A stretch of 64,000 nucleotides of DNA, from positions 59,028-123,027 of the forward strand of contig JABDRN010000028.1 of NCBI GenBank assembly GCA_013041745.1, written 5' to 3'. Within the stretch, counting starts at the first letter, position 1. Every line of letters begins with the position of its first letter. The DNA is from Gammaproteobacteria bacterium. Its GTDB lineage: Bacteria > Pseudomonadota > Gammaproteobacteria > SZUA-229. The translations under genes were made by a program, and so were the position numbers. The notes beneath the pieces are model-generated. The model was not told where the DNA came from and made no database searches. It saw only the letters and a list, made by a program, of their open reading frames with translations. Shown one piece after another: positions 32,119 to 61,680 of this stretch.

Positions 32119-32122
32119 ATTA

Positions 32123-33838: not shown

Positions 33839-33858
33839 CGGGATTACAGGTAACGACT

Positions 33859-35067: not shown

Positions 35068-35069
35068 TC

Positions 35070-36641
35070 ATGAAACGTTTATTTTATTTTACCGGATACC
35101 GCCTCAGCGTGATGCACTGGAAGGGCAAGCAGCTGCTGGGATCGAGTTCTTTCGAGCCGACAGAAGCTGGTCTGGAGAAGTTTCGGGCTTATCTCTCCAG
35201 TACTGAAAAGATAGCCAGCAAATTTCTTGTCGACGTCATCGAAGAAGATTTCAGGAGTGAGAAAATTCCACATGTCGGTGCTCGTGATAGGCGCGCCGTG
35301 ATAAACCGCCTGCTCGACCGCTTCTACCGGTCGAGTAAACAGTATTGTTATAGCACGGTTATCGGCCGCGAAAAAAGTGGCAGAAAAGATGACATCGTAC
35401 TGCTGGGAGCGATGACCAACCCGCATCTTATCCAGCCGTGGTTGACCATTATCGATGAGTGCGAGGTCCCCCTTTCTGGCATATGGACGCTGCCGCTGAT
35501 AAGTAAAAAACTCTTAAAAACGATAAGGGCTTCATCCGGCGTCGTACTGCTGGTCAGCCAGCAGGTAAACAGCAATGTCAGGCAGACGCTATTCAGAGAC
35601 GGCAAACTGATATCCAGCCGTCAGTCTATTATCAACCAGGGCATCAATGATATATCAGGTATCGGAGAACTGGCGGCTCCCGAGGTACAGCGCACCATCG
35701 AGTTCCTTCGCGCCCAGGGCCTGATCGGTCTTGATGAGTTGATCAACCTGCATATCCTGGGAAGTGATGAGCAACTGGCTTCGTTACAGCAGTATTTCAG
35801 GGCAGGTGAACAGCAGAGTGTCTCGATCCACCCGATCGCAGAGATTCATAAGAAACTAGGTTTGAAAGACGTTGGCGAAAAATTTTCTGATGGTATATTT
35901 GCCTGGTATTGTGTAGCGCAGGACATCACTAGCAGTCACTATGGTGAGACACATGAGTTCAATCGTTATCATAATAGGCTTGCTGCTGCTGCGTTATATG
36001 TAGCAAGCCTGGCCGTTCTTATTTCTGGCGCCCTGTTAACACAGTCGAATGTATCCGATGCATTGGAGTATGAGAGATCGATCACCCTGTTAAAGCAGCA
36101 AGAAAACAGTTATAAGGAGCTGTACTCCAAAAAATTCGAAGAGTTTGAAGAAGTTTTCCAGAACGCGGGGGTAATGAACTCGGCGGTTGAACTTGCAGAG
36201 CAGATTAAACGCAACAGCGCCACATCGCCGCTGGACTTCCTCATCGCCCTTAGTGAGATTGTCAGTAATGATATGTCGACGAATATCTATATCGACAAGA
36301 TAGAGTGGTCGGCCATCAATGTCGATGAAAGAGACGGCAGTGTTTCAAAAGCCAACTTTAGCGGAAAGCAATCGGTAAAACATGGTGCGATAGTTACCGG
36401 CCGCATCGACATACCGGAGAATAATTATCGTGATTCTGTCGATCAGATACAGCGGATTATTGACTTGTTGCAGGCCAGTTCGCGTATAGAGAAAGTAGAA
36501 GCATTAAAGATGCCGGTCGACCTGCGCTCCGAAAGTAAATTTTCTACGGAGTCAGGTGTAGAGATCAGGCGGCGAACCAGTCTCGAGACGACCGGTGTTT
36601 TTTCTTTGAGAATAACGATGAAGGCACCGGACCATGTTTAG
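35070..36641 (+). CDS. MshI-like (PilM-PilN fusion) pilus assembly protein
   Basis: Cytoplasmic actin-like N-terminus, one TM (AAAALYVASLAVLISGALL), periplasmic C-terminus. ATG at 35070 is placed 2 nt after the upstream stop. Confidence 0.55.
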   Translation: MKRLFYFTGYRLSVMHWKGKQLLGSSSFEPTEAGLEKFRAYLSSTEKIASKFLVDVIEEDFRSEKIPHVGARDRRAVINRLLDRFYRSSKQYCYSTVIGREKSGRKDDIVLLGAMTNPHLIQPWLTIIDECEVPLSGIWTLPLISKKLLKTIRASSGVVLLVSQQVNSNVRQTLFRDGKLISSRQSIINQGINDISGIGELAAPEVQRTIEFLRAQGLIGLDELINLHILGSDEQLASLQQYFRAGEQQSVSIHPIAEIHKKLGLKDVGEKFSDGIFAWYCVAQDITSSHYGETHEFNRYHNRLAAAALYVASLAVLISGALLTQSNVSDALEYERSITLLKQQENSYKELYSKKFEEFEEVFQNAGVMNSAVELAEQIKRNSATSPLDFLIALSEIVSNDMSTNIYIDKIEWSAINVDERDGSVSKANFSGKQSVKHGAIVTGRIDIPENNYRDSVDQIQRIIDLLQASSRIEKVEALKMPVDLRSESKFSTESGVEIRRRTSLETTGVFSLRITMKAPDHV

Positions 36642-37263
36642 TCAGATAACACCAACCCTCATGCGAGCTATCGGTGTATTCGTTGTGATACTGGTGGTTA
36701 GCGTCATCGTCATCTCGATCTCTTATGTCTATTTGGACGATGTGTTCAATGACCAGCAAGCAGCCAAGCGGGCCATGCGTGTCTGGCAGACCAAGATTAA
36801 CAGCTCGGTCGAGAACAATCAGATCATAGATGAGTTCGAGAGTAACTTTTTAAAGCTGGTAAACCAGGGAGTGGTCGGTGCCGAGGACAGGCTTAGCTGG
36901 TTTGAGACGATCCAGAATACGACGAAAAAACGCGGTATGCCATCAGTTAAATACAGTATCTCGACACAGGCAGCGCTCGATGAAGGCAACCTAAAAGTAG
37001 ACTATCGGGGTATCGATGTCTTCAAAAGCCTGATGACGCTGGATATCAAGATGGCTCATGAAGGTGACCTGTTCGCATTACTAAACGATCTGGAGAAAGC
37101 AGATGGACTGTTCGCAGTCGACCGTTGTGACATAGAAAAGATAAGCAAAACAACCGTTGATACAGAGAATGCCATGAAAGCATACTGTGAGCTCGGCTGG
37201 TACACCTTCCGAGGATCGCGGGCAAATGCCAGGGCAAGTGGTGGTCGAAGAAATGAGAGCTAA
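36634..37263 (+). CDS. PilO/MshJ-like pilus assembly protein
   Basis: N-terminal TM and a coiled/periplasmic domain; overlaps the upstream stop by 8 nt. Confidence 0.5.
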   Translation: MFSQITPTLMRAIGVFVVILVVSVIVISISYVYLDDVFNDQQAAKRAMRVWQTKINSSVENNQIIDEFESNFLKLVNQGVVGAEDRLSWFETIQNTTKKRGMPSVKYSISTQAALDEGNLKVDYRGIDVFKSLMTLDIKMAHEGDLFALLNDLEKADGLFAVDRCDIEKISKTTVDTENAMKAYCELGWYTFRGSRANARASGGRRNES

Positions 37264-37645
37264 TAAAATTTTCCTCTGTCTAATATCGATTTTTTTTAGT
37301 GGTGTGTCATCGGCTGAATATAATGCCGATGACTTGAACAAGCTGTTCACTGATAAAAATCAGCGCGCGCGGATCGATGCGGCTCGATCAGGCTTGACTG
37401 GTTCTGCTAAACAAACAGACAAGGTCAAAGTGGATGGATATGTTACGCGAAGCGATGGAAAAAGTGTGGTATGGATTAATGGCCAGAGCACGCTTGATAG
37501 CTCGAGGGTCGGGAATATTCGAGTCCACCAGTCTTCGATGCATAAGGATAAAAAAGTCGGTATAAGTATCGACGGTGAAAGCAGGCGTCTCAGACCAGGG
37601 GAAACCTGGAGCAAGAGTACGGGTAAAATCGTTGATTCTCAATGA
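37253..37645 (+). CDS. MshK-like small periplasmic pilus assembly protein
   Basis: Signal peptide MRANKIFLCLISIFFSGVSSA; about 130 aa. Start placed at the in-frame ATG 37253. Confidence 0.5.
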   Translation: MRANKIFLCLISIFFSGVSSAEYNADDLNKLFTDKNQRARIDAARSGLTGSAKQTDKVKVDGYVTRSDGKSVVWINGQSTLDSSRVGNIRVHQSSMHKDKKVGISIDGESRRLRPGETWSKSTGKIVDSQ

Positions 37646-39131
37646 TAGACAAATCTACCGCTCACGTCAGAATGGTGTTGCACTACTGGTGCTTGCTATC
37701 CTGATTGCATTTACGGTCACTGCTTACTACTTCTCTAATATATCACTATTACAGGTTGAGCTTGAAAATGACAAACAGACCCGCACTGCTCTGGCCAAGG
37801 CCAGACAGGCATTGCTGTCTTATGCGGTCACTCACTGGCAGAGTAATGACCGCTTGAGCTTGATCGGACAGCTTCCCTGCCCCGACTCAAATAATGCGAC
37901 GCCAGAGGGCGAGCAGAATGCACCTTGTGGTGCAGCATACGCAAATGCTATCGGCTACTTTCCCTGGCGGACGCTAAATATAGATGCTTTGTATTCGGGT
38001 GATGGTGAATGCCTGTTATATGCAGTATCACCGGCTTATAAATCAGCGCCTGTGGCAGCTATTAATCCTGATAGCTTCGGCCAGTTTCAGATCGTCGATT
38101 CCGCTGGTGCCGTTGTCCTGGGTAATATACCGGAAGACAGGCCCGTCGCTATTATTTTTGCAGCGGGCAAAGCTTTAGGCGGGCAGGCTAGAAATCATGT
38201 GAATAACAGTTTATGCGGACTGGACTATGGAAATATAGCGGCTTATCTGGATGACGATGGCACCACGGATAATGCAGCGATCGATATAGCCGTCAATAAT
38301 GTCATCGATCGATTCGTACATAAGTATGATGGATCAGAACAGGGCGCTAATCCGTTGAATGACAGCCTGGTAACCGTCACCCATGAAGATCTCTGGCAGG
38401 TACTGGATAGTTCTATAACAAGTGCTGATTTCAACATAGCGATGAAAAATCTCACAGAAGCTGTTGCCATGTGCTTCGCAGCATACGGATTAAATAACAT
38501 AGATAATAATCTGCCGATGCCTGCAGCTCTTGATCTGAATGGTGGTGAATACAGGCGAAATACCGATTATGATGATAGCGCTAATTTTACTACGGCCTTT
38601 GCCGGACGCCTGCCATATAATGTCTCTAGTGCCAATGCCGTCAGTGGTGTCGTTGGTACACCAAATATCTATAGTAATGCATTTTGTGATGCGATCGATT
38701 TACCGAGCACCATAGCTATCAATGAGAATATCAACTTCTCTAATGATGCAGGCAGTGATAATGGCGAGTACTTTGATCTGTGGCAGAACTGGAAGGATCA
38801 TTTTTTCTATGCTGTATCTAATCGCTTTAAACCTGATGGTGGCGGTTCTGCAGCAGCATGTGATCCGGGTGGTAGTGACTGCGTCGATGTCAGCGGTACA
38901 AAATATGCAGCAATCATCTTTTTCTCCGGGCTGAAACAAGTGGGGCAGAGCCGTTATGCTCCGCCGTTTGAGGCTGATGAAAAAAATGTTATTAGCAACT
39001 ACCTGGAAAATGGTAATCCGGCAGATTTTCCTGATAATTCAGGCACTGGCGACTACGATATAGTCGGTGGTGCCAGTAATGATGTTATGTTCTGCATCAG
39101 AGAAGATATGAGTGTGGTCGAATGTCTTTAA
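37632..39131 (+). CDS. GspK-like large minor (pseudo)pilin; start uncertain
   Basis: N-terminus ...RQNGVALLVLAILIAF resembles the GspK-type prepilin segment lacking the Glu+5; large periplasmic domain. No in-frame ATG, so TTG 37632 or GTG 37575. Confidence 0.45.
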   Translation: MILNDRQIYRSRQNGVALLVLAILIAFTVTAYYFSNISLLQVELENDKQTRTALAKARQALLSYAVTHWQSNDRLSLIGQLPCPDSNNATPEGEQNAPCGAAYANAIGYFPWRTLNIDALYSGDGECLLYAVSPAYKSAPVAAINPDSFGQFQIVDSAGAVVLGNIPEDRPVAIIFAAGKALGGQARNHVNNSLCGLDYGNIAAYLDDDGTTDNAAIDIAVNNVIDRFVHKYDGSEQGANPLNDSLVTVTHEDLWQVLDSSITSADFNIAMKNLTEAVAMCFAAYGLNNIDNNLPMPAALDLNGGEYRRNTDYDDSANFTTAFAGRLPYNVSSANAVSGVVGTPNIYSNAFCDAIDLPSTIAINENINFSNDAGSDNGEYFDLWQNWKDHFFYAVSNRFKPDGGGSAAACDPGGSDCVDVSGTKYAAIIFFSGLKQVGQSRYAPPFEADEKNVISNYLENGNPADFPDNSGTGDYDIVGGASNDVMFCIREDMSVVECL

Positions 39132-39925
39132 AAACACATGAACAAAATGGCTTTACCTTGATAGAGATAGCGGTCGTACTCGTTATCGTCGGCGTGCTCG
39201 TGGGCAGTTTTATCGGTTCGGTCTCCAGCAGGATAGAGACCACACGGCGAGATGATACCAAACAGCAGCTCGAGGAGATAAAAGAGGCGATAATCGGGCA
39301 TGCAATCACACACGGTAGGCTGCCATGCCCGACAACGACCACCGGCCTGGGCCGCGAACAGCCAGGCCCCGGCGTCTGTACCTGGCAACACGGTTTTGTT
39401 CCAGGGGTGACGCTCGGCCTGAGCGGTAATTACAACAGGGACGGCCTGTTGACAGACAGCTGGGGCAACCCGATAAGGTATACCGTAGCTACATCAAACG
39501 GCAGTGCACTGACGAGGTCACCTGGGGCGGGCGGCATGGTTGATGTCGGCATGGCTGCACTGGCGCCGGCACTGATCGTATGCGATGGCGATAGTACTGT
39601 GATTGACGACTGTGCCGGCGCCCCTGCTCCTGCAAAATTGACCGATGAGGCACCATTCATAATCCTGTCTCTGGGAAAAGATGGCAGTGGTTTTGTTACT
39701 AATGTGGCACCAAATTCTGACCAGGGTGAAAACGCGGGAGAGGTTGCAGTAGCAGCAAATGCTGCGGGAGAGAATGTTGCTTATACTGTTGCTGGAAACC
39801 GTGTCTTCGTCAGTAAAGCATATAGTGATGAAGTGTCAGCAGCGGGCCGTTTTGATGATATTATCGTCTGGGAGTCTAAGTACGTGCTTTATAGCCGTAT
39901 GATGAATGCTGGTCAATTACCATAA
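39122..39925 (+). CDS. Type IV pilin-like protein (N-methylation motif)
   Basis: N-terminus MSLKTHEQNG|FTLIEIAVVLVIVGVLVG. Confidence 0.7.
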   Translation: MSLKTHEQNGFTLIEIAVVLVIVGVLVGSFIGSVSSRIETTRRDDTKQQLEEIKEAIIGHAITHGRLPCPTTTTGLGREQPGPGVCTWQHGFVPGVTLGLSGNYNRDGLLTDSWGNPIRYTVATSNGSALTRSPGAGGMVDVGMAALAPALIVCDGDSTVIDDCAGAPAPAKLTDEAPFIILSLGKDGSGFVTNVAPNSDQGENAGEVAVAANAAGENVAYTVAGNRVFVSKAYSDEVSAAGRFDDIIVWESKYVLYSRMMNAGQLP

Positions 39926-47723: not shown

Positions 47724-47742
47724 CGCACCAACATGGTGCATG
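47724..47742. promoter_or_regulatory. NtrC-type dyad GCGCACCAacaTGGTGCATGC upstream of ntrB
   Basis: Matches the TGCACCA-N3-TGGTGCA consensus. Position is analogous to the NtrC-repressed glnL promoter in E. coli. Confidence 0.5.
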
Positions 47743-50169: not shown

Positions 50170-50190
50170 TGCGCACCAATGTGGTGCGCA
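50170..50190. promoter_or_regulatory. NtrC-type dyad TGCGCACCAatgTGGTGCGCA (glnA upstream activating site)
   Basis: Perfect 9-3-9 palindrome matching the NtrC consensus. About 330 bp upstream of the glnA start and abutting the CDF stop codon. Confidence 0.55.
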
Positions 50191-51921: not shown

Positions 51922-52488
51922 TTATGAGTCAAACTCATCGTTATTGTTGAAGTTTCTAAATGCAGATTCATCCTCGAATTCTACCATCTCGGGCTGTTGT
52001 GATTTTACCCATTGCATCAGTCGTAACTGACCATCGATGAGAGCTTGCCCGATAGATCGATGCAGGTTTTTATGCAGCATCATGACCAGCTGCAATCTAT
52101 TATTCGAAGTGGCGATATGAAGATGGGTTTCTGGCTTGCTGCGGCTGAATTTATCAATTATGTCCGTTGGTAAACAAGGGGTGTCGCAGGCAACGATTAG
52201 CACCCTGTCGTGCAGGGCATGAGGCAATGCAGCATAGATACCCGCCAGTGGTCCAAGATATTGCTCAGTCTCATCAGCGATAACTGTCTCAGAGTATCGT
52301 TGATATTGCTTGGTATTACGATTCGCGCTTATCACGATGTCATCGACCTGGGGTATAATTTTTTCGATGACATGTTCGATGAGAGGTTTACCTCTGTACT
52401 CGAGCAGCCCCTTATCTACACCACCGACACGTTTGCCTTCTCCTCCGGCAAGGATGATGCCGCTGACCTGCTCAGCGATCTTGTTCAT
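51922..52488 (-). CDS. mobA: Molybdenum cofactor guanylyltransferase MobA
   Basis: MNKIAEQVSGIILAGGEGKRVGGVDKGLL... matches the MobA N-terminus. Start placed at the internal Met. Confidence 0.8.
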   Translation of the reverse strand: MNKIAEQVSGIILAGGEGKRVGGVDKGLLEYRGKPLIEHVIEKIIPQVDDIVISANRNTKQYQRYSETVIADETEQYLGPLAGIYAALPHALHDRVLIVACDTPCLPTDIIDKFSRSKPETHLHIATSNNRLQLVMMLHKNLHRSIGQALIDGQLRLMQWVKSQQPEMVEFEDESAFRNFNNNDEFDS

Positions 52489-52863
52489 GAGAATAAACAG
52501 GTGATATTGCCTGATAACATAACGGTACTGCAAAGTTTCCACGTCATCTCGGTTTTGTCCACTGGTAATGGCGGGCTATGTTTCATAAGGCAGTATAAGG
52601 TTGCGTTAGATCAGGATAAATTCTAACAAGGTATCATATCTCAAGCCTTGATCGTTTTGTGATAATTATAAGGTGCCTTCCATGGCGTGTGAGGAGTCTC
52701 GTCCTTGTATGATTCAAACTCTGTAATGTGATTCAGTTGAGCACCAAAACTACTGGTAGCAGGCGCTTCACCTAAATGAGTTTACAGGGTGTTCAGACAT
52801 AGTCATGTGCAACATGCATGCCAGCGATAAAACCGGTATCTGCAGTCGATTACAAGGTGAAGT

Positions 52864-52880
52864 TGCACAGTTAGGGTGCA
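52864..52880. promoter_or_regulatory. NtrC-like dyad TGCACagttagGGTGCA upstream of the ANTAR regulator gene
   Basis: TGCAC-N6-GGTGCA spacing matches NtrC sites. Additional GTGCAA half-sites occur at 52806, 52877 and 52918. Confidence 0.4.
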
Positions 52881-52973
52881 AAATCGGTGTCGATATGAGT
52901 TATTCAGGTGCAATGCTGTTCCCTAAAATGGTTTTCTCTGGCTATAACAGGCATATACAGTACCTATATCATT

Positions 52974-52989
52974 TGGCATGACTATTGCT
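52974..52989 (+). promoter_or_regulatory. Sigma54 promoter TGGCATGactaTTGCT driving the ANTAR regulator
   Basis: Near-consensus -24 GG and -12 TTGC with correct spacing. It overlaps the ORF-track ATG at 52978, which argues for a downstream start. Confidence 0.6.
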
Positions 52990-53025
52990 ATTTGTTACAT
53001 GTATGAAAACCAAGAAGATTTGTAT

Positions 53026-53598
53026 ATGGACCTGATCCTTGTTGCCGACAACCTGGATAGCGCTCAGCCATTATTGAGAGTTGCATCAAAGTCTGGCTAT
53101 CGAATAGTGAAGTTGATCGAAGTGGATGCTGATGCCAGCAGGTATGTGGAATCATTGCGCCCTGACGCCCTGATAGTGCTCAGTGATGAAATAGACCGGC
53201 TAGTGTTACGGCAGATGAAAGCTATCACCGCAAAACAACCCTTACCGATGGTTGTTTTTACCCGTGATTCTAATCCCGATTCTATCGATGCCGCTGTAAA
53301 AGCCGGTGCTAGTACTTATGTAGTTGACTGTAATGATCCTGAGAGGCTGGGCTCTCTGCTGGGTGTGGCCAGGTCGAGGTTCGATGAGCAGCAACGCTTA
53401 CAGAAAGAGCTGCTGCAGACAAAGATCGCACTGTCCGACCGGAAGAATGTAGAAAGAGCAAAAGGTATCATCATGAAAACCAAGAGCGTAAGTGAAGACC
53501 AGGCTTATAACGCGATGCGAAAACTGGCGATGAACCATAATAAACGCATAGGTGAAATAGCTGAGCAGATAATCTCAGCGTCTGAAGTCCTGGTCTAA
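53026..53598 (+). CDS. NasT/AmiR-like response regulator with C-terminal ANTAR RNA-binding antitermination domain
   Basis: Receiver-like N-terminus (MDLILVADN...) and ANTAR (LSDRKNVERAKGIIMKTKSVSEDQAYNAMRKLAMNHNKRIGEIAEQII). Confidence 0.8.
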   Translation: MDLILVADNLDSAQPLLRVASKSGYRIVKLIEVDADASRYVESLRPDALIVLSDEIDRLVLRQMKAITAKQPLPMVVFTRDSNPDSIDAAVKAGASTYVVDCNDPERLGSLLGVARSRFDEQQRLQKELLQTKIALSDRKNVERAKGIIMKTKSVSEDQAYNAMRKLAMNHNKRIGEIAEQIISASEVLV

Positions 53599-53697
53599 TA
53601 GACGTTATTAAAGTTCAGTCATCAGCTGGATTGATCTATGTTCTCCTGACCCATCATGACAGCGTAAAATATATAACATAAGTCTTTCAGGTGAAAA

Positions 53698-54669
53698 ATG
53701 GGATGGCTAGATAAATCAATCAGTAAACAGCGTAGTTTTATAGAAGGTTTATTACTTGATCCTTTGAGCAAGCTTGCCGATATATGTGTTGACAGCTGGA
53801 GTGACAGGAAAAAGCTGGATCAGAGTCTGAAAGCCTATCTGCAGGCGAAAACAGATCACCGCTGTTCTTTATTGTATGCGATAGACATAAAGGGCCTGCA
53901 GTACAGCAGTAATATCTCAAAAGATATGGTCGATGAAGCCATCATCGGTCAGGACCTGTCGCACAGGCCTTATCTAAAAAGCATCGATAATGGCAGTGAA
54001 ACACAGTTGTTGCTTAGTGATGTCTACATCGATAAGCAGACCCGCAAGCCCTGTATAACAGTGCTACATGAGGTCAGGTCGAATCATGAGGTCATCGGCT
54101 ATATCGCTGCTGATTTCGGACTGAAAGATCTGCCGTTAAAAAACGTTAATGAGTTACAGTCATATGAATGGCGCCAGATAAAAGGCGATCCTTCCATACG
54201 TGGTACGATGTTTCAGCAGACGCGGGTCCGCAGTTCGATGGATCAGCATATCGATGAAGTGCTCGATGTGGTCGAGTCCCTGATGACAGAGCAGGGGGTG
54301 TTTCACGTAAAGCTGCATTTCTCCAGTTCACGAGCGACACTATGGTCATACAGTGATCCTTATCGATATCGTCTGCATGTATTGGACGAGATAATTAATC
54401 CTAAAGTTTGTCTCGTCTATGAAAAAGTGCCTTACCCTGAGCAGGCCCTGGTCACGGCCGGTATGGTGCACAACGTGTTAAAAGCTTTCAAGCTTTTGAG
54501 GGATGCTGATGAAACTATCTACCTGCGGGCCGCGTCATTGAATATAATGAACGGGCTGGTCGGACTCAACTTCTCCTGCGACGGCTCTCATTATATGCCA
54601 GCCAATGAATTTCTCGAAAAAGACCTGAGGTTCTGGTTTGGCGAAGAAACTATCTGTGTCAATGCCTAG
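53698..54669 (+). CDS. Cytoplasmic Cache/PAS-like sensor protein; putative ligand-sensing partner of the ANTAR regulator
   Basis: No TM. Cache-like motif RPYLKSI...LLLSDVYIDKQTRKPCITVLHEV...EVIGYIAADFGL. Sits where nasS would be but is unrelated to NrtA-type binding proteins. Confidence 0.5.
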   Translation: MGWLDKSISKQRSFIEGLLLDPLSKLADICVDSWSDRKKLDQSLKAYLQAKTDHRCSLLYAIDIKGLQYSSNISKDMVDEAIIGQDLSHRPYLKSIDNGSETQLLLSDVYIDKQTRKPCITVLHEVRSNHEVIGYIAADFGLKDLPLKNVNELQSYEWRQIKGDPSIRGTMFQQTRVRSSMDQHIDEVLDVVESLMTEQGVFHVKLHFSSSRATLWSYSDPYRYRLHVLDEIINPKVCLVYEKVPYPEQALVTAGMVHNVLKAFKLLRDADETIYLRAASLNIMNGLVGLNFSCDGSHYMPANEFLEKDLRFWFGEETICVNA

Positions 54670-54684
54670 ATATTAATGATAGAT

Positions 54685-54709
54685 AAAAAAAGGCAGCCTG
54701 TCGGCTGCC
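54685..54709 (-). terminator. Intrinsic terminator (minus-strand orientation) after the PhoX-like gene
   Basis: GGCAGCC-tgtc-GGCTGCC with the T-run on the minus strand (A7 on the plus strand). Confidence 0.6.
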
Positions 54710-54779
54710 CCACTAAGTTCATGACAGAGGTGTCGGACCTCACGGTGAATGTGTCACCATCATGATCAAGGCACGGGTC

Positions 54780-56117
54780 TTAGTCGTTGTCTTTCCAGTG
54801 GCCCTTGCCTTTACGTGTTATCGCCCACGTGGCATCGCCATCATCAGCTGCTGAGTGCTGTACGTTGACATACAGGGTTTTGTCATCAGTCGGGCTGAAG
54901 TAGATGCCGGTACCTTCTGCACCCGGGTCGGTCAGAGAAGCGAATAAGTCAACGTCTTTAGATGCTCCATACTCGTTAGTTTTTGTAGAAGCGAACCAGA
55001 TGTCAGATGGTTTGTTATCTTCGATCATGATCAGGTCACCGTTTGGTGCTTCTGCCAGGTTGTCGACGCTGTCGAAACCAGTCTGGTGGCCTTCCTGACC
55101 GGGCTTGCCTATTTCAACAGGAGCGTTAACGCCAGCTTTAACGAAGTTAGTGACTTGCATTGACTGAAGATCAACAGCGATCACACGGCCTTCGTAGTAC
55201 TCTTTGCCGTATTCGTCACGAGGGCCTTCAGTGATAGCAACGTACAGATTGCCGTCGATGATTTCCAGGTCTTCAGGACGCTGGTAGCTTGCGCCGCCAG
55301 CCAGAGTGCCGGCGCGACGAGCATCAGTAGCGTCGATAGGGCCCAGCCATTCGCCCTGTCCAGTATTATCGGCACGATGCTCATTGTTAAGAGGGGTTTT
55401 AATGCCCAGAACGTACAGATCACCAGAAGACAGGTCACCGTAATTGTGAGGAACGAACTTGTAAATGCCGCCACCACATGGAATGCCCAGGTCACAGCCT
55501 GAAGTACGGCCGCGGTGCTCATCTACTACATAAACGTTACCATCAATGTCGAAATCGATGCCTTCGTGCGCCAGGCGGCCAACAGCAGGACGATCATGAA
55601 TTACTGCAGCAGTAGTCAGGTCAGCATCCAGTTCGATTTCGAAAAAACGCCCGCCCGTTGTTTCTTCAGCGAATACAACTGTGCCCCATGGGGACCAGCG
55701 AATACCGTCCAGGGCATTATATGAAGGGTCCTGAGCCAGGATGGAAGTTGCACCGGTTTCCAGGTCAACAACAGTAACTGTGCCGCCTTCTGGCTGGTTG
55801 GCCGGGAAGCGCAGTTCATGAGTGCGATACATAAAACGACCAGCCATCGGGCCAGTTTCATTGACAACGTTCATGTCATGCCAGTCGTCGCGGCCACCGT
55901 CATAGATGTTCAGGTCTGCTTCATCAGAAACCACAGTCTGTTTGAAGCCTTTAGGCAGTTTCCATGGCGCAGTCGGATCCCAGTTAGCTGCGTTAGCAGA
56001 TTCTTCGAGTGGTTTGAAGCTGAAGCTGTTGTTTTTTTTATCATCATCTGCCTGTACTGTGCCAGAGATGGTTAACGCTGCAGTGATAGCAGAAGCCAGT
56101 AAGTGATTTTTGTTCAT
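54780..56117 (-). CDS. Secreted DUF839/PhoX-family beta-propeller (phosphatase-like) protein
   Basis: Signal peptide MNKNHLLASAITAALTISGTVQA after SD AAGGAAAAA; DUF839-like motifs (SPWGTVVFAEE, NGDLIMIEDN). Confidence 0.5.
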   Translation of the reverse strand: MNKNHLLASAITAALTISGTVQADDDKKNNSFSFKPLEESANAANWDPTAPWKLPKGFKQTVVSDEADLNIYDGGRDDWHDMNVVNETGPMAGRFMYRTHELRFPANQPEGGTVTVVDLETGATSILAQDPSYNALDGIRWSPWGTVVFAEETTGGRFFEIELDADLTTAAVIHDRPAVGRLAHEGIDFDIDGNVYVVDEHRGRTSGCDLGIPCGGGIYKFVPHNYGDLSSGDLYVLGIKTPLNNEHRADNTGQGEWLGPIDATDARRAGTLAGGASYQRPEDLEIIDGNLYVAITEGPRDEYGKEYYEGRVIAVDLQSMQVTNFVKAGVNAPVEIGKPGQEGHQTGFDSVDNLAEAPNGDLIMIEDNKPSDIWFASTKTNEYGASKDVDLFASLTDPGAEGTGIYFSPTDDKTLYVNVQHSAADDGDATWAITRKGKGHWKDND

Positions 56118-56440
56118 TAAATTTTTCCTTAAGCAAGGTTGAAAATATTTATAACCAGGAGTCAATGTGGTTATGTCGTTCTCAGTCATTCCTGAGAGCG
56201 GATATATTCATCGAGTTGTGTGAAAGATTTATTAAACAAAATTGACGGTTTTATGAATATATATGTCGTATGACAGATATGCAGTTATTGTTACAACATT
56301 ATTACTAAAAATTTTTGTAACCGATGCAGACGAACTGGTTTGGTGCGGATGGAATCTTTATGGGCTTCTATGGTGCAATAGTTGCCTGGAATGAGTAAAA
56401 GTTATTATTAAATCTTACGTATATTAACGACTTGAAAAAC

Positions 56441-56456
56441 TGGCACGTTCTATGCT
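56441..56456 (+). promoter_or_regulatory. Sigma54-like promoter TGGCACGttctaTGCT of the flavo-heme operon
   Basis: Consensus -24 TGGCACG; the -12 is TGCT (one mismatch) with correct spacing. About 20 nt upstream of ANTAR hairpin P1. Confidence 0.45.
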
Positions 56457-56474
56457 TATGCATTAATAAGTGAG

Positions 56475-56546
56475 CTGGTCAATGGCGGCCAGTCTGAATA
56501 AATACATTTTTTAGATAATTATCTAAGACACAAAGCAATGGTGCTT
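56475..56546 (+). ncRNA. ANTAR-target dual hexaloop hairpins (P1 56475-56492 CUGGUC[AAUGGC]GGCCAG; P2 56533-56546 AAGC[AAUGGU]GCUU) in the operon leader
   Basis: Both loops are hexaloops with A at position 1 and G at position 4, the ANTAR-target signature. P2 overlaps the 5' arm of the terminator. Confidence 0.55.
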
Positions 56547-56586
56547 GTATGCGGATTAGTTTCGTATGCAAGCGCCATTTTTTTTG
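56538..56586 (+). terminator. Leader intrinsic terminator (attenuator) upstream of the flavoprotein gene
   Basis: A 16-bp stem (AUGGUGCUUGUAUGCG / CGUAUGCAAGCGCCAU with 3 G-U pairs), 9-nt loop, then T8. Located 25 nt before the start codon. Confidence 0.7.
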
Positions 56587-56610
56587 TGCCGTTTAAAAGT
56601 CGATAGTTTT

Positions 56611-58629
56611 ATGAGCGCAATGCTAGAAAAGATCGTACCTGTAGCACAGGTCTCATCAGATAACGCAGTTTGTATCGCTGCCGAGACGGCCGCAATCGTC
56701 ATCGTTGGCAGTGGTCCTGTCGGTATGCAGTTTGCCAATGAACTCATGCTACGTAATACCGATGCACCCGTTATCGTTTATGGCAGCGAGCCTGTGCAGC
56801 CATACAACAGGGTAAGGCTCTCAGACTATCTTGCCGGTGAGGTATACCGTGATGCGCTTTCGATCGAGGAGCCTGTTTCAGGTAATGCAAATATCGAGTT
56901 TCGTTATAACTGTGCCGTCGAGTGGATCGATAAGAAAGAAAGGTTTATAACCGATGCCAGTGGCAGGGTGCAGCGATATTCAAAGCTGGTGCTGGTCACA
57001 GGGTCAACACCATTTATACCGATGTTTGGCAACCGCCATTACGAAGGTGTCTATACCTTTCGTACACTGGGCCAGGCGGATGAACTGCTCTCCAGAAAAA
57101 TCCGTACCAGGCATACTGTTGTCATAGGCGGAGGTCTGCTGGGCATTGAAACTGCGCGTGCCATGCAGAAGTATCATACAGATATAACCATCGTCGAACA
57201 TAACAGATGGTTGATGATGCAGCAGCTCGATGAGAAGGGTTCATCATATCTTGAGGACTACATCAAAAAGAACGGGATAAATATAGTACTCGATGACAGT
57301 GTCGTCAGTGTTACGGGAAATGGCCGTGTCGAGGGTGTAACGCTACGTAGCGGTAAAACAATAGAATGCGATACATTAATCGTAGCCGCCGGAGTTCGAC
57401 CGAATATTTCGCTGGCCAGGGATGCCGGACTGGTCTACCACAAAGGCATCCGTATCGATAATCATTTGCAGACCTCAGAGAAGGATATCTTTGCTATCGG
57501 TGAGTGTGCAGAACATGACGAAAATGTTTACGGGCTGGTAAAACCAGGTTTTGATCAGGCGGCTGTTCTTGCGGAGCGTTTGACAGGCGGTGATGCTCAG
57601 TATGTCGGGTCGATAAGTACGACAAAGTTGAAGGTCATGTCACAGGCAGTTTTCAGTGCTGGACGCAATGGTATAGATGAAGAGCCTGGTGCGTCCGTTA
57701 GTGAATATGTTTTCAGCGATAAGGATGCTGGTATATATCGAAAGATTCGCATCTTCGGGAATCGTATCATCGGTGTGATCGCCGTCGGTGAATGGCATGA
57801 GAGTGCTCTTATCAATGAAGCCATACAGGAAAGACGCAAGTTCTGGTTCTGGCACCTGGTCCGTTTCAAAGCCACTGGAAATATCTGGGGTGATGCAGAT
57901 GATATCGATGTATCGACATGGCCAGCGTCTGCGACCGTATGTAACTGTACCGGGGTGACACGAGGCAGATTAAGCAGCGTAGTTAACAGTGGATGTGAGG
58001 ATGTCGCCTGCCTTACCAGGATGACGCGCGCTGGAAGTGTCTGTGGCTCATGCAAACCGTTACTGGCGGAGATGTTAGGTGAGTCAGCTGATATCGAACC
58101 GGTACGGTCATGGCGGGGGCTGCTGGCTTTATCTGCACTGACTGTTGTTATCACAGTGATGTTCGCATTGTTCTGGCCGATACCGTTTGCTGATAGTGTG
58201 CAGTACGAAATACGCTGGGATGAATTATGGCGAGACTCACTGTTCAAGCAGATCAGTGGTTTCAGTATGCTGGGGCTGATCGTAATCGGACTTTTCATCT
58301 CGCTGCGAAAGCGCAGTTCTAAAGTCAGCTTCGGAGATTATGACCTGTGGCGTATATCTCACATCGTGCTCGGTATCGTCGCCCTGGCAGTGCTCATCGC
58401 GCATACCGGTTTTCGTTTAGGCAATGAACTGAATATGCTGCTGATGATTAATTTTTTATTGCTGGCTGCGGCCGGTGCAAGCGCCAGTACTGTCGTGGCA
58501 ACCGAGCATCGCATGGTGCCGGCAGTCGCAAAGAAGAAGCGCAAGATGTGGAACAAGGTGCACCTGTTTCTGTTCTGGTCTCTGCCTGTACTCCTGGGTT
58601 TTCATGTCTTGAAGACATATTACTACTGA
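56611..58629 (+). CDS. NirB-N-terminal-like NAD(P)H flavoprotein (FAD/NAD plus BFD [2Fe-2S]) fused to a C-terminal His-rich 5-TM domain
   Basis: GSGPVG and GGGLLG Rossmann motifs; GECAEHDENVYGLVKPGFDQAAV (compare NirB GECASWNNRVFGLVAPGYKMAQV); BFD-like CNCTGVTRGRL...CGSCKP; then five hydrophobic helices with His residues. No siroheme or 4Fe-4S domain. Start at the internal Met after the terminator. Confidence 0.75.
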   Translation: MSAMLEKIVPVAQVSSDNAVCIAAETAAIVIVGSGPVGMQFANELMLRNTDAPVIVYGSEPVQPYNRVRLSDYLAGEVYRDALSIEEPVSGNANIEFRYNCAVEWIDKKERFITDASGRVQRYSKLVLVTGSTPFIPMFGNRHYEGVYTFRTLGQADELLSRKIRTRHTVVIGGGLLGIETARAMQKYHTDITIVEHNRWLMMQQLDEKGSSYLEDYIKKNGINIVLDDSVVSVTGNGRVEGVTLRSGKTIECDTLIVAAGVRPNISLARDAGLVYHKGIRIDNHLQTSEKDIFAIGECAEHDENVYGLVKPGFDQAAVLAERLTGGDAQYVGSISTTKLKVMSQAVFSAGRNGIDEEPGASVSEYVFSDKDAGIYRKIRIFGNRIIGVIAVGEWHESALINEAIQERRKFWFWHLVRFKATGNIWGDADDIDVSTWPASATVCNCTGVTRGRLSSVVNSGCEDVACLTRMTRAGSVCGSCKPLLAEMLGESADIEPVRSWRGLLALSALTVVITVMFALFWPIPFADSVQYEIRWDELWRDSLFKQISGFSMLGLIVIGLFISLRKRSSKVSFGDYDLWRISHIVLGIVALAVLIAHTGFRLGNELNMLLMINFLLLAAAGASASTVVATEHRMVPAVAKKKRKMWNKVHLFLFWSLPVLLGFHVLKTYYY

Positions 58630-58650
58630 GCATTCAAAACGGACAGGGTT

Positions 58651-60072
58651 ATGAATGTGAGTGAGACGGCACTGAAGTGGATCTTATGGATAGTACTAAC
58701 AACGATAATTGTTATATGGCTAGGTTATTCGATGCTTTCTGAGTCAGCAGATAAAACGATATTTATGCCCGGGCCATTAAGTCCGGGGCATCATCAGCTG
58801 GCAGATGCCTGTGGTGCTTGCCATGCTGATGCTTTTGGCGGCGGAGAAGTGCTGCAGCAGTCCTGTGTTGACTGCCATGGCGAAGACAGGGTGAAGCCTT
58901 TTGATTCTCACCCAGCAAAAAAATTTAAGGATCCACGTAATGTTGAGCTCTTAGAAAATATCGATGCCCTGATGTGTACCAGCTGCCATACAGAACATCG
59001 TCCAGAGATCACGGCAAAAGATGGCGTGACACAGCCGATCGATTTCTGTGTTCACTGTCACCAGGATGTTGCTGAGGAGCGACCGTCACATGAAGGTATG
59101 GCCTTTGATACCTGTAAAGATTCTGGCTGTCACAATTTTCATAATAATCGTGCTCTGTATACCGACTTTCTGATTAAGCATCTCGATGAGCCGCCGACAT
59201 TGAAACAAGTCGTGCTGCCCGCAAAAGAGTATCTCGATGTTATCGATGAAGTCGTCGAGTACCCCCGAGAAAAATATCCACTGACTCAACTCGAAGAAAA
59301 AGATATCGATGCCGTGGAACGGCTGACTGTCAGTCCAGAGATAAAAAAAGACTGGCTCGAAACATCACATGCTAAATCGGGTGTCAATTGTACAGCATGC
59401 CATATAACGGAGGATGGTAGCGGCAGTGAGAAATGGACTGACCATCCTGAGCACCAGGCCTGCTCGAGTTGCCATAGTGTGGAAGTATCGCGTTTTACAG
59501 AGGGTAAGCATGGCATGCGTCTTAAACAGGGACTGTCACCGATGACGCCAGAGAATGCCATGCTGCCGATGAAAGAAGCTGCGCAACATGAAGATCTTAC
59601 CTGCAGCAGCTGCCATGGCGCTCATCGATTCGATGTGGTGTCGGCCGCTGTCGAATCATGCCTTGGCTGTCACGATGATGACCATAGCCTCGCTTACGAG
59701 CAGTCGCCACATTATCAGCTGTGGCAGAAAGAGATAAGCGGTGAAGCTGAAGCTGGCACCGGCGTTTCCTGCGCCAGTTGCCACATGCCACGTATCAGTT
59801 ATGACGTCAGTGAATGGTCAAGTCGCATAATCGTCGACCACAACCAGAGTGCAAACCTGTCGCCCAACAGCAAGATGATCCGTTCCAGTTGCCTGCACTG
59901 TCATGGCCTGGAGTTTACCTTGGAAGCATTGATCGACGTGAATATGATCAACAATAACTTCACTGGAAAGCCCGTTATTAATAGCGAAACGATGGACCTT
60001 GCCGACAGCGAAAACCAGAGACGCCTGAAGGCGGCGGCTGAAGATGAAGATGCTGGCATGTTCGGTTTCTAG
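58651..60072 (+). CDS. Membrane-anchored multiheme cytochrome c (10-11 heme sites); NapC/NrfH-like tetraheme N-module plus an additional multiheme domain
   Basis: N-terminal TM, then CGACH, CVDCH, CTSCH, CVHCH within about 130 aa, then CTACH, CSSCH, CSSCH, CLGCH, CASCH, CLHCH and one CX4CH (CKDSGCH). Confidence 0.8.
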   Translation: MNVSETALKWILWIVLTTIIVIWLGYSMLSESADKTIFMPGPLSPGHHQLADACGACHADAFGGGEVLQQSCVDCHGEDRVKPFDSHPAKKFKDPRNVELLENIDALMCTSCHTEHRPEITAKDGVTQPIDFCVHCHQDVAEERPSHEGMAFDTCKDSGCHNFHNNRALYTDFLIKHLDEPPTLKQVVLPAKEYLDVIDEVVEYPREKYPLTQLEEKDIDAVERLTVSPEIKKDWLETSHAKSGVNCTACHITEDGSGSEKWTDHPEHQACSSCHSVEVSRFTEGKHGMRLKQGLSPMTPENAMLPMKEAAQHEDLTCSSCHGAHRFDVVSAAVESCLGCHDDDHSLAYEQSPHYQLWQKEISGEAEAGTGVSCASCHMPRISYDVSEWSSRIIVDHNQSANLSPNSKMIRSSCLHCHGLEFTLEALIDVNMINNNFTGKPVINSETMDLADSENQRRLKAAAEDEDAGMFGF

Positions 60073-60134
60073 AGAGTAGCAGAAAACTAACCGTTGATTT
60101 TTCAACATAAACAAACTTGACCTTAGAGGTGATT

Positions 60135-60743
60135 ATGAAAAACATGAAACACAATTTGAAACGAAAGCTGATGATTGGCACTGCAGTATCTGCTATCGCA
60201 GCTGCCACGGCTGTCAGTGCCGAGGTCTCTGATGCAAAAGTATCTGTAAAAGCGATGGCAGATGCATTACACCTGGTGATGGATTCCGATCGTTCGGTAT
60301 ATACCAAGAAGATCGTGAACAGGCTGGTGAAAAAAGAGAAAGTGATCAAAGCGTCCGAACACTTCGAAGATGAAAAAGCACTGGTGTTGCCAGCACAGAT
60401 GTTCAGGTTCGGTTCGGAGATGGCGGCAAAGCGAGCAGAGAAACTGGATGATGTTAATTTCAGTTATACCCTGCAGTCGCTATGGCCTATCAATAAACAG
60501 AATGCGCCGAAGACCAATGCAGAAAAAGCAGGTTTGAAATATGTCGCGGAGAACAAGGGTAAAAATTATTACACGACCGAGAAGCTTGGCGGGGTAAATT
60601 ATTTTACCGCAGTTTACGCAGATACGGGTGTCGCACCGGTATGTGTTTCATGTCATAACAAGCACCCGGACACACCGAAAAAAGATTTTAAGATCGGTGA
60701 CGTAATGGGTGGCGTAGTTATCCGTATACCGGTTGAAGGCTAA
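60135..60743 (+). CDS. Periplasmic monoheme c-type protein, DUF3365/Tll0287-like (PAS-like heme c)
   Basis: Signal peptide; single C-terminal CVSCHNKH. SD AGAGGTGATT directly before the ATG. Confidence 0.5.
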   Translation: MKNMKHNLKRKLMIGTAVSAIAAATAVSAEVSDAKVSVKAMADALHLVMDSDRSVYTKKIVNRLVKKEKVIKASEHFEDEKALVLPAQMFRFGSEMAAKRAEKLDDVNFSYTLQSLWPINKQNAPKTNAEKAGLKYVAENKGKNYYTTEKLGGVNYFTAVYADTGVAPVCVSCHNKHPDTPKKDFKIGDVMGGVVIRIPVEG

Positions 60744-60754
60744 TAGATAGCACT

Positions 60755-61156
60755 ATGTTGACCGGACTAGGTAACATTATATCTCTTGCATTCTCTGTTG
60801 TAGTCTTTACCACGGTCATGGTATCAGAGGCGCTGGCGGATAATGCGGATTATATTCAGTCAGGTGATGAAGCACTGCAACAGGGCCGAGGCCTGTGGCT
60901 GGAGAACTGCGAGGGATGTCATGGTTATGGTATCGCAGACGCACCGATACCTATGCAAGCTGGCGACTGGAAGCACCGCGTGATAAAGGAAAGAGAGGTT
61001 CTATATCGTCATGCTATAGAAGGTTTTATCGGTGAGGACTATAGCATGATGCCGGCACGCGGCGGTAATGAAGAATTAAACGACGACCAGGTTAAAGCGG
61101 CGGTGGATTATATGCTGTTCCTGGCAAATTTTTATATCAAACAACAAGACAATTAA
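60755..61156 (+). CDS. Class I cytochrome c (c5-like)
   Basis: Signal peptide, CEGCHGYG, and a distal Met region (DYSMMPARGG). Confidence 0.75.
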   Translation: MLTGLGNIISLAFSVVVFTTVMVSEALADNADYIQSGDEALQQGRGLWLENCEGCHGYGIADAPIPMQAGDWKHRVIKEREVLYRHAIEGFIGEDYSMMPARGGNEELNDDQVKAAVDYMLFLANFYIKQQDN

Positions 61157-61166
61157 CGAGGTGATT

Positions 61167-61592
61167 ATGATAACTCCACAACAGAAAGAACTGGTACAAA
61201 AAACATGGGTGATGGTCGTGCCTATCGCTGATACGGCCGCCGAGCTTTTTTATGGCCGATTATTCGAGCTGGAGCCCGAATACAAGAAGATGTTTAAAAA
61301 CGATATGACAGAGCAGGGTAAAAAGCTGATGAAGACGATCAATATCGCTGTAGAAGCGCTTGATGATGTCGAACCACTGGTCCCGGTGCTAAAAAAGATG
61401 GGTGCTGACCATGCAGGTTATGGCGTAAAAGAGCGTGACTACAACGTCGTCGGTGCAGCCCTGTTATGGACGCTGGAAAAAGGTCTGGGTGACGCCTTTA
61501 CCGATGAGGTCAAAAATGCCTGGGGTGCAGTCTATGAATTACTGGCAAGCGTGATGAAGTCTGGTGCAGCAGAAGCAGAACAGGCAGCATAA
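61167..61592 (+). CDS. Single-domain bacterial globin (Vitreoscilla-Hb / flavohemoglobin N-domain-like)
   Basis: Aligns to VHb: B10 Tyr (FYGRLF), E7 Gln, proximal His (GADHAGYGV), and ...NVVGAALLWTLEKGLGDAFTDEVKNAWGAVYELLASVM. Same GAGGTGATTATG start context as the 60135 gene. Confidence 0.8.
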   Translation: MITPQQKELVQKTWVMVVPIADTAAELFYGRLFELEPEYKKMFKNDMTEQGKKLMKTINIAVEALDDVEPLVPVLKKMGADHAGYGVKERDYNVVGAALLWTLEKGLGDAFTDEVKNAWGAVYELLASVMKSGAAEAEQAA

Positions 61593-61645
61593 GATTTAAG
61601 GTTTACTCCACAGGAACACAGGGACGCAGGGAAGCACTTATTAAC

Positions 61646-61680
61646 AGGGCCAGTGGACATCAGTTCACTGGCCCATTTCT
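61646..61680 (+). terminator. Putative terminator ending the flavo-heme-globin operon
   Basis: GGGCCAGTGGAC-atca-GTTCACTGGCCC followed by ATTTCTGTAT (weak T-run). Confidence 0.45.

Follow-up and report, generated by a model that had tools for sequence, protein, structure and literature searches.

A conserved haem-rich operon behind a nitrate-assimilation-type leader, with a plausible role in nitrogen-oxide handling

What does an operon of flavin and haem proteins do behind the promoter and leader RNA of an assimilatory nitrate (nas) operon? The question is raised by a stretch of 64,000 nucleotides (nt) from a gammaproteobacterial assembly of the SZUA-229 lineage (contig JABDRN010000028.1), which in its whole length is called the window here. 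A gene for a NasT-like ANTAR antiterminator lies 2.8 kb upstream of five genes encoding a flavo-iron-sulfur-cytochrome b fusion, an 11-haem c-type cytochrome, a Tll0287-like monohaem protein, a small cytochrome c and a single-domain globin. A first-pass annotation, made from the letters alone, had described this cassette as a redox operon wired like a nas operon, and the elements that it named are all present at or near the positions it gave. We consider it plausible that the cassette is an accessory operon under NasT/NtrC control that handles nitrogen oxides, with a substantial chance that it represents a new enzyme system.

Gene assignments for the window proteins were made by profile searches against Pfam and NCBIfam (release 20.0, June 2026), and these bore out the domain calls of the first-pass annotation (ANTAR, Pyr_redox_2, Fer2_BFD, PF11845 and globin). 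On the plus strand, the ANTAR gene is followed by an open reading frame (ORF) for a protein of 323 amino acids (aa) and then, beyond a PhoX-like gene on the opposite strand, by the five-gene operon, within which the intergenic gaps are 21, 44, 11 and 4 nt (56566/56611-61592). The features are collected in Table 1.

Table 1. Predicted features of the regulator region and the operon (window coordinates; TM, transmembrane)
Feature	Position	Strand	Basis or remark
NtrC-type enhancer dyad, TGCACAGTTAGGGTGCA	52864..52880	.	between divergent sigma54-like promoters
sigma54-like promoter of the ANTAR gene, TGGCATGACTATTGCT	52974..52989	+	pattern scan
NasT-like antiterminator (pseudo-receiver + ANTAR)	53026..53598	+	ORF open from 52978
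dCache-like stand-alone protein, 323 aa, cytoplasmic	53698..54669	+	weak dCache_1 match; AlphaFold2 (AF2) model and Foldseek
PhoX-like secreted protein gene	54780-56189	minus	
sigma54 promoter of the operon, TGGCACGTTCTATGCT	56441..56456	+	pattern scan
Leader hairpin P1, 7-bp stem, hexaloop AAUGGC	56474..56493	+	-10.3 kcal/mol
Leader hairpin P2, 4-bp stem, hexaloop AAUGGU	56533..56546	+	-4 kcal/mol or weaker alone
Intrinsic leader terminator, 19-bp stem + U8	56537..56587 (stem 56537-79)	+	-28.7 kcal/mol
Flavo-iron-sulfur-cytochrome b fusion	56611..58629	+	ORF open from 56566
11-haem c-type cytochrome, N-terminal TM anchor	58651..60072	+	haem motifs
Tll0287-like (sCache_haem) monohaem protein, periplasmic	60135..60743	+	PF11845; ORF open from 60117
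Class I cytochrome c, periplasmic	60755..61156	+	Cytochrome_CBB3, Cytochrom_C
Single-domain globin, flavohaemoglobin/Vitreoscilla type, cytoplasmic	61167..61592	+	ORF open from 61161
Operon-ending intrinsic terminator	61647..61674	+	12-bp stem, 8 G-C pairs
mobA	51922-52542	minus	TIGR02665 above cut-off; just upstream of the ANTAR gene

The leader RNA and its conservation

The case for nas-type control begins with the leader of the operon. Tested against the sigma54 motif (GG-N10-GC / TGGCAC-N5-TTGC), the sites at 56441-56 and 52974-89 both fit. Downstream of the former, the hexaloops of hairpins P1 and P2 both begin with A and have G as the fourth base, and the loop and 3' arm of P2 (56537-46) double as the 5' arm of the 19-bp terminator. 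The terminator fold has a z-score of -6.5 and was equalled by none of 200 shuffles, while the whole leader folds at -49.7 kcal/mol as against -26.7 ± 3.5 for shuffled sequences. In experiments, the ANTAR target was shown to consist of two hexaloop stem-loops with A1 and G4, the second of which competes with a terminator (PMC3369931); the window leader has both traits, as its two hexaloops carry A1 and G4 and its P2 and terminator are mutually exclusive. The weakness of P2 on its own is expected for an anti-terminator element that is stabilised by a protein. Thus, the leader that the first-pass annotation had described, with a sigma54-like promoter, two ANTAR-type hairpins and an overlapping terminator, could be located in full at 56441-56587, and its parts would act as promoter and antiterminator. 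ATG 56566 falls inside the terminator, which makes ATG 56611 the most likely start of the fusion gene. No curated Rfam family matched the leader at E-values up to 10, an absence that we do not count as evidence against it. Another sigma54-like string, TGGTGCAATAGTTGCC (56377-56392), which shares bases with a GGTGCA half-site, precedes the main promoter by 64 nt; it could be a promoter or part of an enhancer.

When one genome per species was searched with the cytochrome, we found that at least 581 species encode the 11-haem protein. Neighbourhoods were counted in the 80 best cytochrome loci of these, plus two loci reached through the fusion protein. With hardly any exceptions, the genes stand in the order fusion - cytochrome - Tll0287-like - (cytochrome c) - globin, and the cassette is collinear across gamma- and betaproteobacteria and metagenome-assembled genomes (MAGs) assigned to Nitrospirota and Verrucomicrobiota; its carriers include cultured Thiosocius, Halochromatium, Alcanivorax and Noviherbaspirillum.

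The control elements recur along with the genes. Of 70 loci, 42 have a strict sigma54 pattern in the 300 nt that precede the fusion gene (background 0.02 per 300 nt), and 13 of 44 loci have an NtrC-like dyad with at most two mismatches in the 200 nt above the promoter (0.02 per 200 nt), although one of the 13, L070, is a coordinate artefact. These dyads mostly lie 70-135 nt upstream of the orthologous sigma54 promoters. The significance of the hairpins was judged by enrichment over shuffles and random windows: a hexaloop hairpin followed by a T-run precedes the fusion gene in 33 of 70 loci, compared with 1.2% of random windows, and the dual hexaloop motif with T-run has 77 matches in the 2.97 Mb of fetched loci (both strands), compared with 1-4 in shuffles. 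The usual P2 of the orthologous loci is GGAC-AAMGGC-GUCC in the same P2/terminator layout, and its stem variants (CGAC/GUCG, GGGC/GCCC, GAGC/GCUC and AAGC/GCUU) preserve pairing. Across gamma- and betaproteobacteria, the hairpins, the terminator and the sigma54 promoter have been retained. The first-pass annotation had staked its reading on conservation of the leader hairpins in orthologous loci and of the regulator together with the operon; the former is evident from the dual-motif counts, and as for the latter, an ANTAR gene lies within 10 kb of the cassette in 31 of 82 loci.

Three loci depart from the common picture. In L090, whose 323-aa protein is 86% identical to that of the window, synteny extends unchanged from ntrC as far as the PhoX-like gene, and nothing is missing from the sigma54 promoter, the two hairpins or the terminator (L090:12400-13730); an 87-codon remnant of the fusion gene comes next and is followed directly by the globin gene. 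The genes for the fusion, the 11-haem cytochrome, the Tll0287-like protein and cytochrome c have thus been lost by a natural deletion, which leaves the globin alone behind the leader. This would fit a globin that is a self-sufficient functional part, but the deletion may simply be a recent one. In L070 (4465-5894), three consecutive globin ORFs, instead of one, follow the cassette. L007 (CAVYIJ010000005.1), deposited as an 'uncultured Halobacteria archaeon' MAG, holds a typical proteobacterial nas cluster with the cassette, and the contig is probably mis-binned.

The same leader is also found in front of nitrate-uptake genes. Away from the cassette, matches of the dual-hairpin motif mostly precede a gene for a signal-peptide protein of ~470 aa, and of ten such non-cassette genes that were tested, seven encode NMT1_2/NrtA proteins and one an alginate-export-type porin. 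Within 10 kb of the cassette we counted NrtA in 34, NrtB in 24 and NrtC/D in 30 of 79 loci, complete NirB in ~10 and NasA in ~8 loci, and a PP2C/Ser-Thr kinase and an MFS transporter in 5-6 loci. In six loci (L008, L018, L022, L046, L058 and L071), the ANTAR gene stands beside an NrtA-like gene, as in the NasS-NasT arrangement, and many other genomes have the cassette embedded in nas clusters, beside nirBD, nasA and nrtABC. The alginate-export-type outer-membrane porin gene, possibly for a nitrate/nitrite porin, occurs in the nas clusters of L068 (14203-15438) and 8-10 other loci; in L068 it is directly preceded by an ANTAR leader.

The likeness to the nas operons governed by NasS-NasT or NasR (Paracoccus, Azotobacter, Pseudomonas, Klebsiella nasF) therefore covers the sigma54 promoter with a putative NtrC-type enhancer, the dual A1/G4 hexaloop leader whose second hairpin is set against a terminator, and the ANTAR regulator with its putative REC-like domain, with the position of NasS filled by the NrtA-like gene in the six loci listed above. 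In contrast to nas operons, the cassette encodes no nitrate reductase, nitrite reductase or transporter. Since the control elements recur upstream of the cassette and the same leader precedes nrtA, we assign the cassette to the NasT/NtrC regulon of nitrate assimilation as an accessory operon, and hold this regulatory part of our explanation to be very probable. The nas-type architecture proposed by the first-pass annotation is hence upheld. Its description of the system as one without nitrate or nitrite reductase applies to the window locus and not to many others, where the cassette lies next to nirBD or nasA; because it so often shares nas clusters with these genes, it appears to be an accessory of nitrate assimilation rather than a substitute for it.

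The regulator gene and its sensor-like neighbour

The ANTAR protein matches PF03861 with E=4.8e-18 (65.1 bits; cut-off 27.3), and its N-terminus reaches 20.7 bits against Response_reg, below the cut-off of 30.2. Its nearest relatives in the PDB are 6WSH, Rv1626 (1S8N) and NasR (4AKK). It aligns end to end with the receiver (REC)-ANTAR structures 6WSH and 1S8N, and in this alignment, judged by eye, the position of the conserved Lys of the receiver is taken by Asp. The promoter TGGCATGACTATTGCT overlaps the first ATG of the ORF (52978), and orthologous proteins are called at 190 aa, for which reasons the gene most likely begins at ATG 53026 (190 aa). This promoter lies ~95 nt downstream of the NtrC dyad TGCACAGTTAGGGTGCA and 37 nt upstream of ATG 53026. 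The dyad differs from TGCACC-N5-GGTGCA at 1 of 12 positions and is one of only seven NtrC-type sites with up to two mismatches in the 64 kb; the dyads ahead of ntrB (47724-47740, one mismatch) and glnA (50172-50188, two mismatches) gave the scan a positive control within the window itself. We could therefore confirm the NasT-like gene with its sigma54 promoter and NtrC dyad. On the other side of the dyad, which it has in common with the ANTAR promoter, a sigma54-like string, TGGCATGCATGTTGCA (52808-52823, minus strand), faces mobA, a thioredoxin-like gene and a CDF gene; mobA may thus be nitrogen-regulated as well.

The 323-aa protein encoded directly after the ANTAR gene had been overlooked in the first-pass annotation. 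It gives a weak dCache_1 match in Pfam, has neither a signal peptide nor a TM helix and finds no sequence match in the PDB, and its family comprises 4673 homologues, every one of them named 'hypothetical protein'. The AF2 model has a predicted local distance difference test (pLDDT) score of 72.7, with 84-94 in the N-terminal domain, and its best Foldseek matches are the double-Cache sensor domains of KinD, CtaA, Tlp3 and DctB (E ~4e-6), and also PctA. In the window lineage the gene follows the ANTAR gene immediately, elsewhere it ends an nrtBC-nirB-nirD-nasA cluster, and members of the family are met repeatedly in nas clusters, whether or not an ANTAR gene adjoins (e.g., L089:10001-10969 and L007:20474-21010). 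The window thus differs from the nas operons in that the neighbour of its ANTAR gene is this cytoplasmic dCache-like protein and not the NrtA-like NasS. We infer that the protein is a small-molecule sensor in place of NasS and a candidate partner of the antiterminator, which would make its family a candidate sensor of nitrate, nitrite or another nitrogen oxide. In seven loci (L014:5764-7041 and six others), a divergent gene for a GlmU-like nucleotidyl-transferase (425 aa) is a neighbour of the ANTAR gene; L014 and L039 have it between the ANTAR and dCache-like genes.

The redox proteins of the cassette

The fusion protein combines Pyr_redox_2 (E=7e-54), Rubredoxin_C and Fer2_BFD domains. Against the NirB model TIGR02374 it aligns with positions 1-468 of 794 (E=1e-104), with a score of 351 below the cut-off of 578; no match to the NIR_SIR siroheme/[4Fe-4S] domains was obtained in Pfam or NCBIfam, and the C-terminus is instead a TM domain of five predicted helices. 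Among 29 homologues sharing 46-100% identity, both dinucleotide-binding GxGxxG motifs, the four Cys of the BFD [2Fe-2S] cluster (C444, C446, C478 and C481) and two pairs of TM His, H584/H598 and H651/H665, are invariant. The pairs are located on two helices, each with i/i+14 spacing, which is the spacing of di-haem membrane cytochromes b. The best match of the TM domain to DUF4405 has E=8e-5 (three of five members), the window protein itself reaching 18.6 bits against a cut-off of 26.7; matches to Ferric_reduct and cytochrome b561 are likewise below cut-off, and the PDB gave no sequence match. For proteins of the DUF4405 family, binding of haem b by four central His has been demonstrated (PMC11334425), and the TM domain of the fusion may do the same. 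The two His pairs and a cytoplasmic flavin dehydrogenase that would export electrons are common to the fusion and the NOX/ferric-reductase, MsrQ and DUF4405 proteins. In contrast to these, the dehydrogenase of the fusion is of the NirB/NorW type, with two dinucleotide folds and a BFD [2Fe-2S] domain, and precedes the membrane domain, while the predicted acceptor is a multihaem c-type cytochrome rather than O2, Fe(III) or MsrP.

The cytochrome, of 473 aa, has ten CXXCH and one CX4CH motif behind its N-terminal anchor, and its haem domain is predicted to be periplasmic. Across 79 orthologues, all 11 haem motifs are conserved and so are 12 additional His, so bis-His ligation would be possible for every haem. 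The label 'NapC-like' given to it before does not hold, as neither Pfam nor NCBIfam returned a NapC/NirT match and the protein has 11 haem motifs instead of the four of a tetrahaem cytochrome. Its best profile match is Cytochrom_c3_2. It also shows weak similarity to Cytochrom_C552, confined to residues 347-419, and, in a profile search against the PDB, to octahaem nitrite reductase (E=1.3e-8 with a three-sequence profile) and NrfA (~1e-5). These matches centre on a C-terminal CxxCHMPR/CLHCH pair, which we take to resemble the haem 4/5 motifs of NrfA. We rejected membership in the NrfA/octahaem group, given the lack of CXXCK, the partial Cytochrom_C552 match and a score of 32.7 bits against PRK11125 (cut-off 595), and also membership among the DmsE/MtrA decahaem proteins (TIGR03508, 36.8 bits; cut-off 192.2).

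In view of the similarity, one may ask if the cassette is a periplasmic assimilatory reductase, in which the 11-haem cytochrome or the Tll0287-like protein would reduce nitrite, hydroxylamine or nitric oxide (NO) to ammonium with NAD(P)H, the globin being only protective; nitrogen-starved cells could in this way scavenge trace nitrogen oxides. Control by NtrC/sigma54 and co-regulation with nitrate uptake would suit such a role, as would the profile similarities just given (E range 1e-8 to 1e-5) and an invariant 'CH-x-EH' after haem 3 that aligns, weakly, with the active-site CHVEY of TvNiR. The predicted periplasmic location and the nitrogen-oxide context are further traits in common with NrfA and the octahaem reductases. 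Yet, the nitrite-reductase alignments are short and weak, no CXXCK or evident open-site haem is present among the 11, the 12 spare His permit bis-His ligation throughout, and complete nirBD occurs in the same clusters, which speaks against a replacement. The cassette further departs from NrfA and the octahaem reductases in the N-terminal anchor and the number of haems, and from NrfA in the predicted donor, which is NAD(P)H through a dedicated membrane flavocytochrome and not quinol through NrfH or NrfBCD. We consider a reductase of this kind rather unlikely.

The Tll0287-like protein, called at 202 aa in identical contigs, matches PF11845 with E=2e-19 (70.8 bits; cut-off 24.1). At least 95% of 78 sequences share C176, C179 and H180; H183, M95 and M197 are conserved too, there is no additional Cys, and Met95, Met197 and His183 are candidate sixth ligands of the haem. 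The above-cut-off PF11845 match, the conserved CXXCH and the stand-alone periplasmic form agree with the sCache_haem proteins described in a recent preprint (bioRxiv 10.64898/2026.02.01.703092), in which signalling-type members bind NO tightly and stand-alone members are treated as of unknown redox role. Unlike Tll0287 and the P. putida protein, the cassette member has no Cys axial ligand and has a multihaem cytochrome as a fixed operon partner.

The small cytochrome c is not an obligatory member of the cassette: 38 sequences (that of the window included) could be aligned from ~80 loci. This bears on the idea that the operon serves overflow of reductant or oxygen management: under nitrogen limitation with excess carbon, NAD(P)H would be burned through cytochrome c and a terminal oxidase, and the globin would buffer or deliver O2. 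Here the sigma54/NtrC control finds a reason, the small cytochrome belongs to a Cytochrome_CBB3-type class I family, and the route from NAD(P)H to c-type cytochromes would bypass quinones. However, the dispensability of the small cytochrome does not agree with this idea, which also leaves unexplained both the embedding in nas clusters and the nitrate/nitrite-type ANTAR gate that the cassette has in common with nrtA; we give it little credence.

The globin, of 143 aa, matches PF00042 (E=1e-16) and positions 1-136 of 399 of PRK13289 (E=7e-23); it has no signal peptide and lacks the fused FAD/NAD reductase domain of Hmp proper. It resembles the Hell's Gate globins (E=5e-28) and Hmp (1e-16). Y31, Q52 and H84, found in at least 95% of 70 sequences, presumably correspond to Tyr B10, Gln E7 and His F8 of Hmp. 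These residues and the likeness to Hmp suggest an NO dioxygenase, and we counted them in favour of a link to nitrogen oxides, together with the distant likeness of the cytochrome to NrfA and octahaem nitrite reductases and the NO binding of signalling-type sCache_haem domains.

Had such a cassette been described before? We found no description in the full-text literature, most subscription journals being outside the scope of that search, and no mention of it in work on the NtrC regulon of Methylomonas, on globins of iron oxidisers or on marine DUFs. The uet undecahaem cluster of Tenderiales was considered and rejected, as its gene content is different. The first-pass annotation had called the operon undescribed, and no profile assigns it to a characterised system: no NCBIfam model reaches its cut-off for either the fusion or the cytochrome. 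Public names are generic or wrong, i.e., 'FAD-dependent oxidoreductase' or, mistakenly, 'nitrite reductase large subunit' for the thousands of fusion homologues, and 'cytochrome c3 family protein' for those of the cytochrome. With so many carrier species and cultured genera among them, the system might nonetheless have been characterised under another name or terminology, for instance in a subscription journal; the anonymous database names, the full-text search and the redox role left open for stand-alone sCache_haem members in 2026 all make this improbable.

Nitrogen oxides as the probable context

The closest precedent for the operon is the NasT-controlled Bjgb-Flp system of Bradyrhizobium, where the NasT-dependent narK-bjgb-flp-nasC operon disposes of the NO that arises from nitrate assimilation by means of a single-domain globin together with an NAD(P)H flavoprotein (PMC4724949). 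Both systems show NasT dependence, predicted in our case, an Hmp-like single-domain globin, an NAD(P)H flavoprotein and a context of nitrate assimilation. However, the flavoprotein of the window is of the NirB-N type with a [2Fe-2S] cluster and is fused to a membrane domain of the di-haem type, the 11-haem cytochrome and the sCache_haem protein are obligatory in the cassette, and neither nasC nor narK is part of the operon. As this is the best precedent, we favour a reading in terms of nitrogen oxides.

The same precedent can be turned another way. Assimilatory nitrate reductases have electron-feeding partners, such as NasC of Klebsiella and NasB of Bacillus, and the NirB-N-type module could likewise supply such a reductase, the membrane and periplasmic haems linking it to the respiratory cytochrome c pool for redox balance. 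The N-terminal 470 residues of the fusion are indeed NirB/NorW-like, mobA adjoins in the window, in L002-L006 and in L068, NasA is nearby in the ~8 loci noted above, and in Bradyrhizobium Flp is needed for growth on nitrate and has been proposed as reductant of NasC (PMC4724949). Yet, the strictly conserved partners of the fusion are cytochromes and the globin, not NasA; most loci have no nasA close by, with the cassette standing alone in Thiosocius, and the clusters already contain nirBD with a flavin module of its own. An electron-supply role is in our view quite improbable.

The mechanism that we propose for the nitrogen-oxide reading is as follows. Under nitrogen limitation, NtrC would activate the sigma54 promoters that precede the antiterminator gene and the operon. 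Transcripts of the latter would end at the leader terminator unless the ANTAR protein occupied both hexaloop hairpins, and this protein would presumably have been freed from a ligand sensor, namely the dCache-like protein in the window lineage and a NasS-like NrtA homologue elsewhere. In the cytoplasm, the fusion would oxidise NAD(P)H with its FAD and pass the electrons to the [2Fe-2S] cluster, from which they would go either to the cytoplasmic Hmp-type globin or, over two b-haems across the membrane, to the anchored 11-haem cytochrome, which would relay them to two periplasmic proteins, the Tll0287-like haem protein and cytochrome c. The globin would turn NO into nitrate by dioxygenation, whereas the periplasmic haem chain would use electrons from NAD(P)H to reduce NO and perhaps also nitrite or hydroxylamine. 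The operon would thereby remove or salvage reactive nitrogen oxides arising from nitrate assimilation. While gene content, leader anatomy and the conservation of cassette and control elements are matters of observation, we infer the direction of electron flow and the substrate, and a periplasmic function in the handling of nitrogen oxides seems plausible.

Several points weigh against this proposal. It leaves unexplained why defence against NO should need an 11-haem periplasmic chain. The cytochrome may be just a wire, as no catalytic site is evident in the periplasm, and its AF2 model is poor (pLDDT 55.6). The TM domain of the fusion scores below threshold against haem-b families and lacks a relative of solved structure, and the one stand-alone sCache_haem member that was tested bound NO weakly (bioRxiv 10.64898/2026.02.01.703092). 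In the window, the NtrC site of the operon is weak, with three mismatches at -80, and in some genomes, such as Thiosocius, the cassette lies away from any nas gene. Taken as a whole, an accessory operon of the nitrate regulon for detoxification or salvage of nitrogen oxides on both sides of the membrane is therefore held tentatively, at a little short of an even chance. A bolder version, which we rate as possible though doubtful, sees in the cassette an unrecognised enzyme system of the nitrogen cycle, where an NAD(P)H flavo-FeS-cytochrome b would send low-potential electrons over the membrane into the 11-haem wire and, through it, into a transformation of nitrogen oxides at the periplasmic haem-Cache protein (e.g., of NO or hydroxylamine to ammonium that is then assimilated), with a new cytoplasmic dCache sensor standing in for NasS beside the ANTAR antiterminator in some lineages; its carriers, at least 581 species, belong to several phyla.

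As for the surroundings of the locus, the adjacency of mobA that the first-pass annotation had noted is confirmed by TIGR02665, and glnA, ntrB and ntrC are found 3-8 kb to the left of the mobA/ANTAR region. The PhoX-like gene separates regulators and operon in the window lineage only and is not at that position in L002-L006. To the right of the window, as seen in identical contigs, no nas genes were found, the neighbours being a nitroreductase gene, a MocA-like gene and XdhC. An MSHA-type pilus or type II secretion-like cluster at 26221-39925 (sigma54 activator, secretin, MshE-type ATPase and T2SS-F) is unrelated to the operon.

Although nitrate assimilation is a textbook subject, hundreds of proteobacterial and other species thus have a conserved five-gene haem operon within or next to their nas clusters, and their lifestyles span sulfur oxidisers, methanotrophs, marine heterotrophs and symbionts. 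The predictions can be tested in cultured hosts of the cassette, i.e., Thiosocius teredinicola, Alcanivorax profundi and Noviherbaspirillum sedimenti. The dCache-like and ANTAR proteins form a new candidate pair of sensor and antiterminator. If the operon does remove or recycle NO, nitrite or hydroxylamine, it would affect the leakage of NO and N2O from aerobic nitrate-assimilating bacteria, and it would add an NAD(P)H-driven electron route to the periplasm that bypasses quinones.

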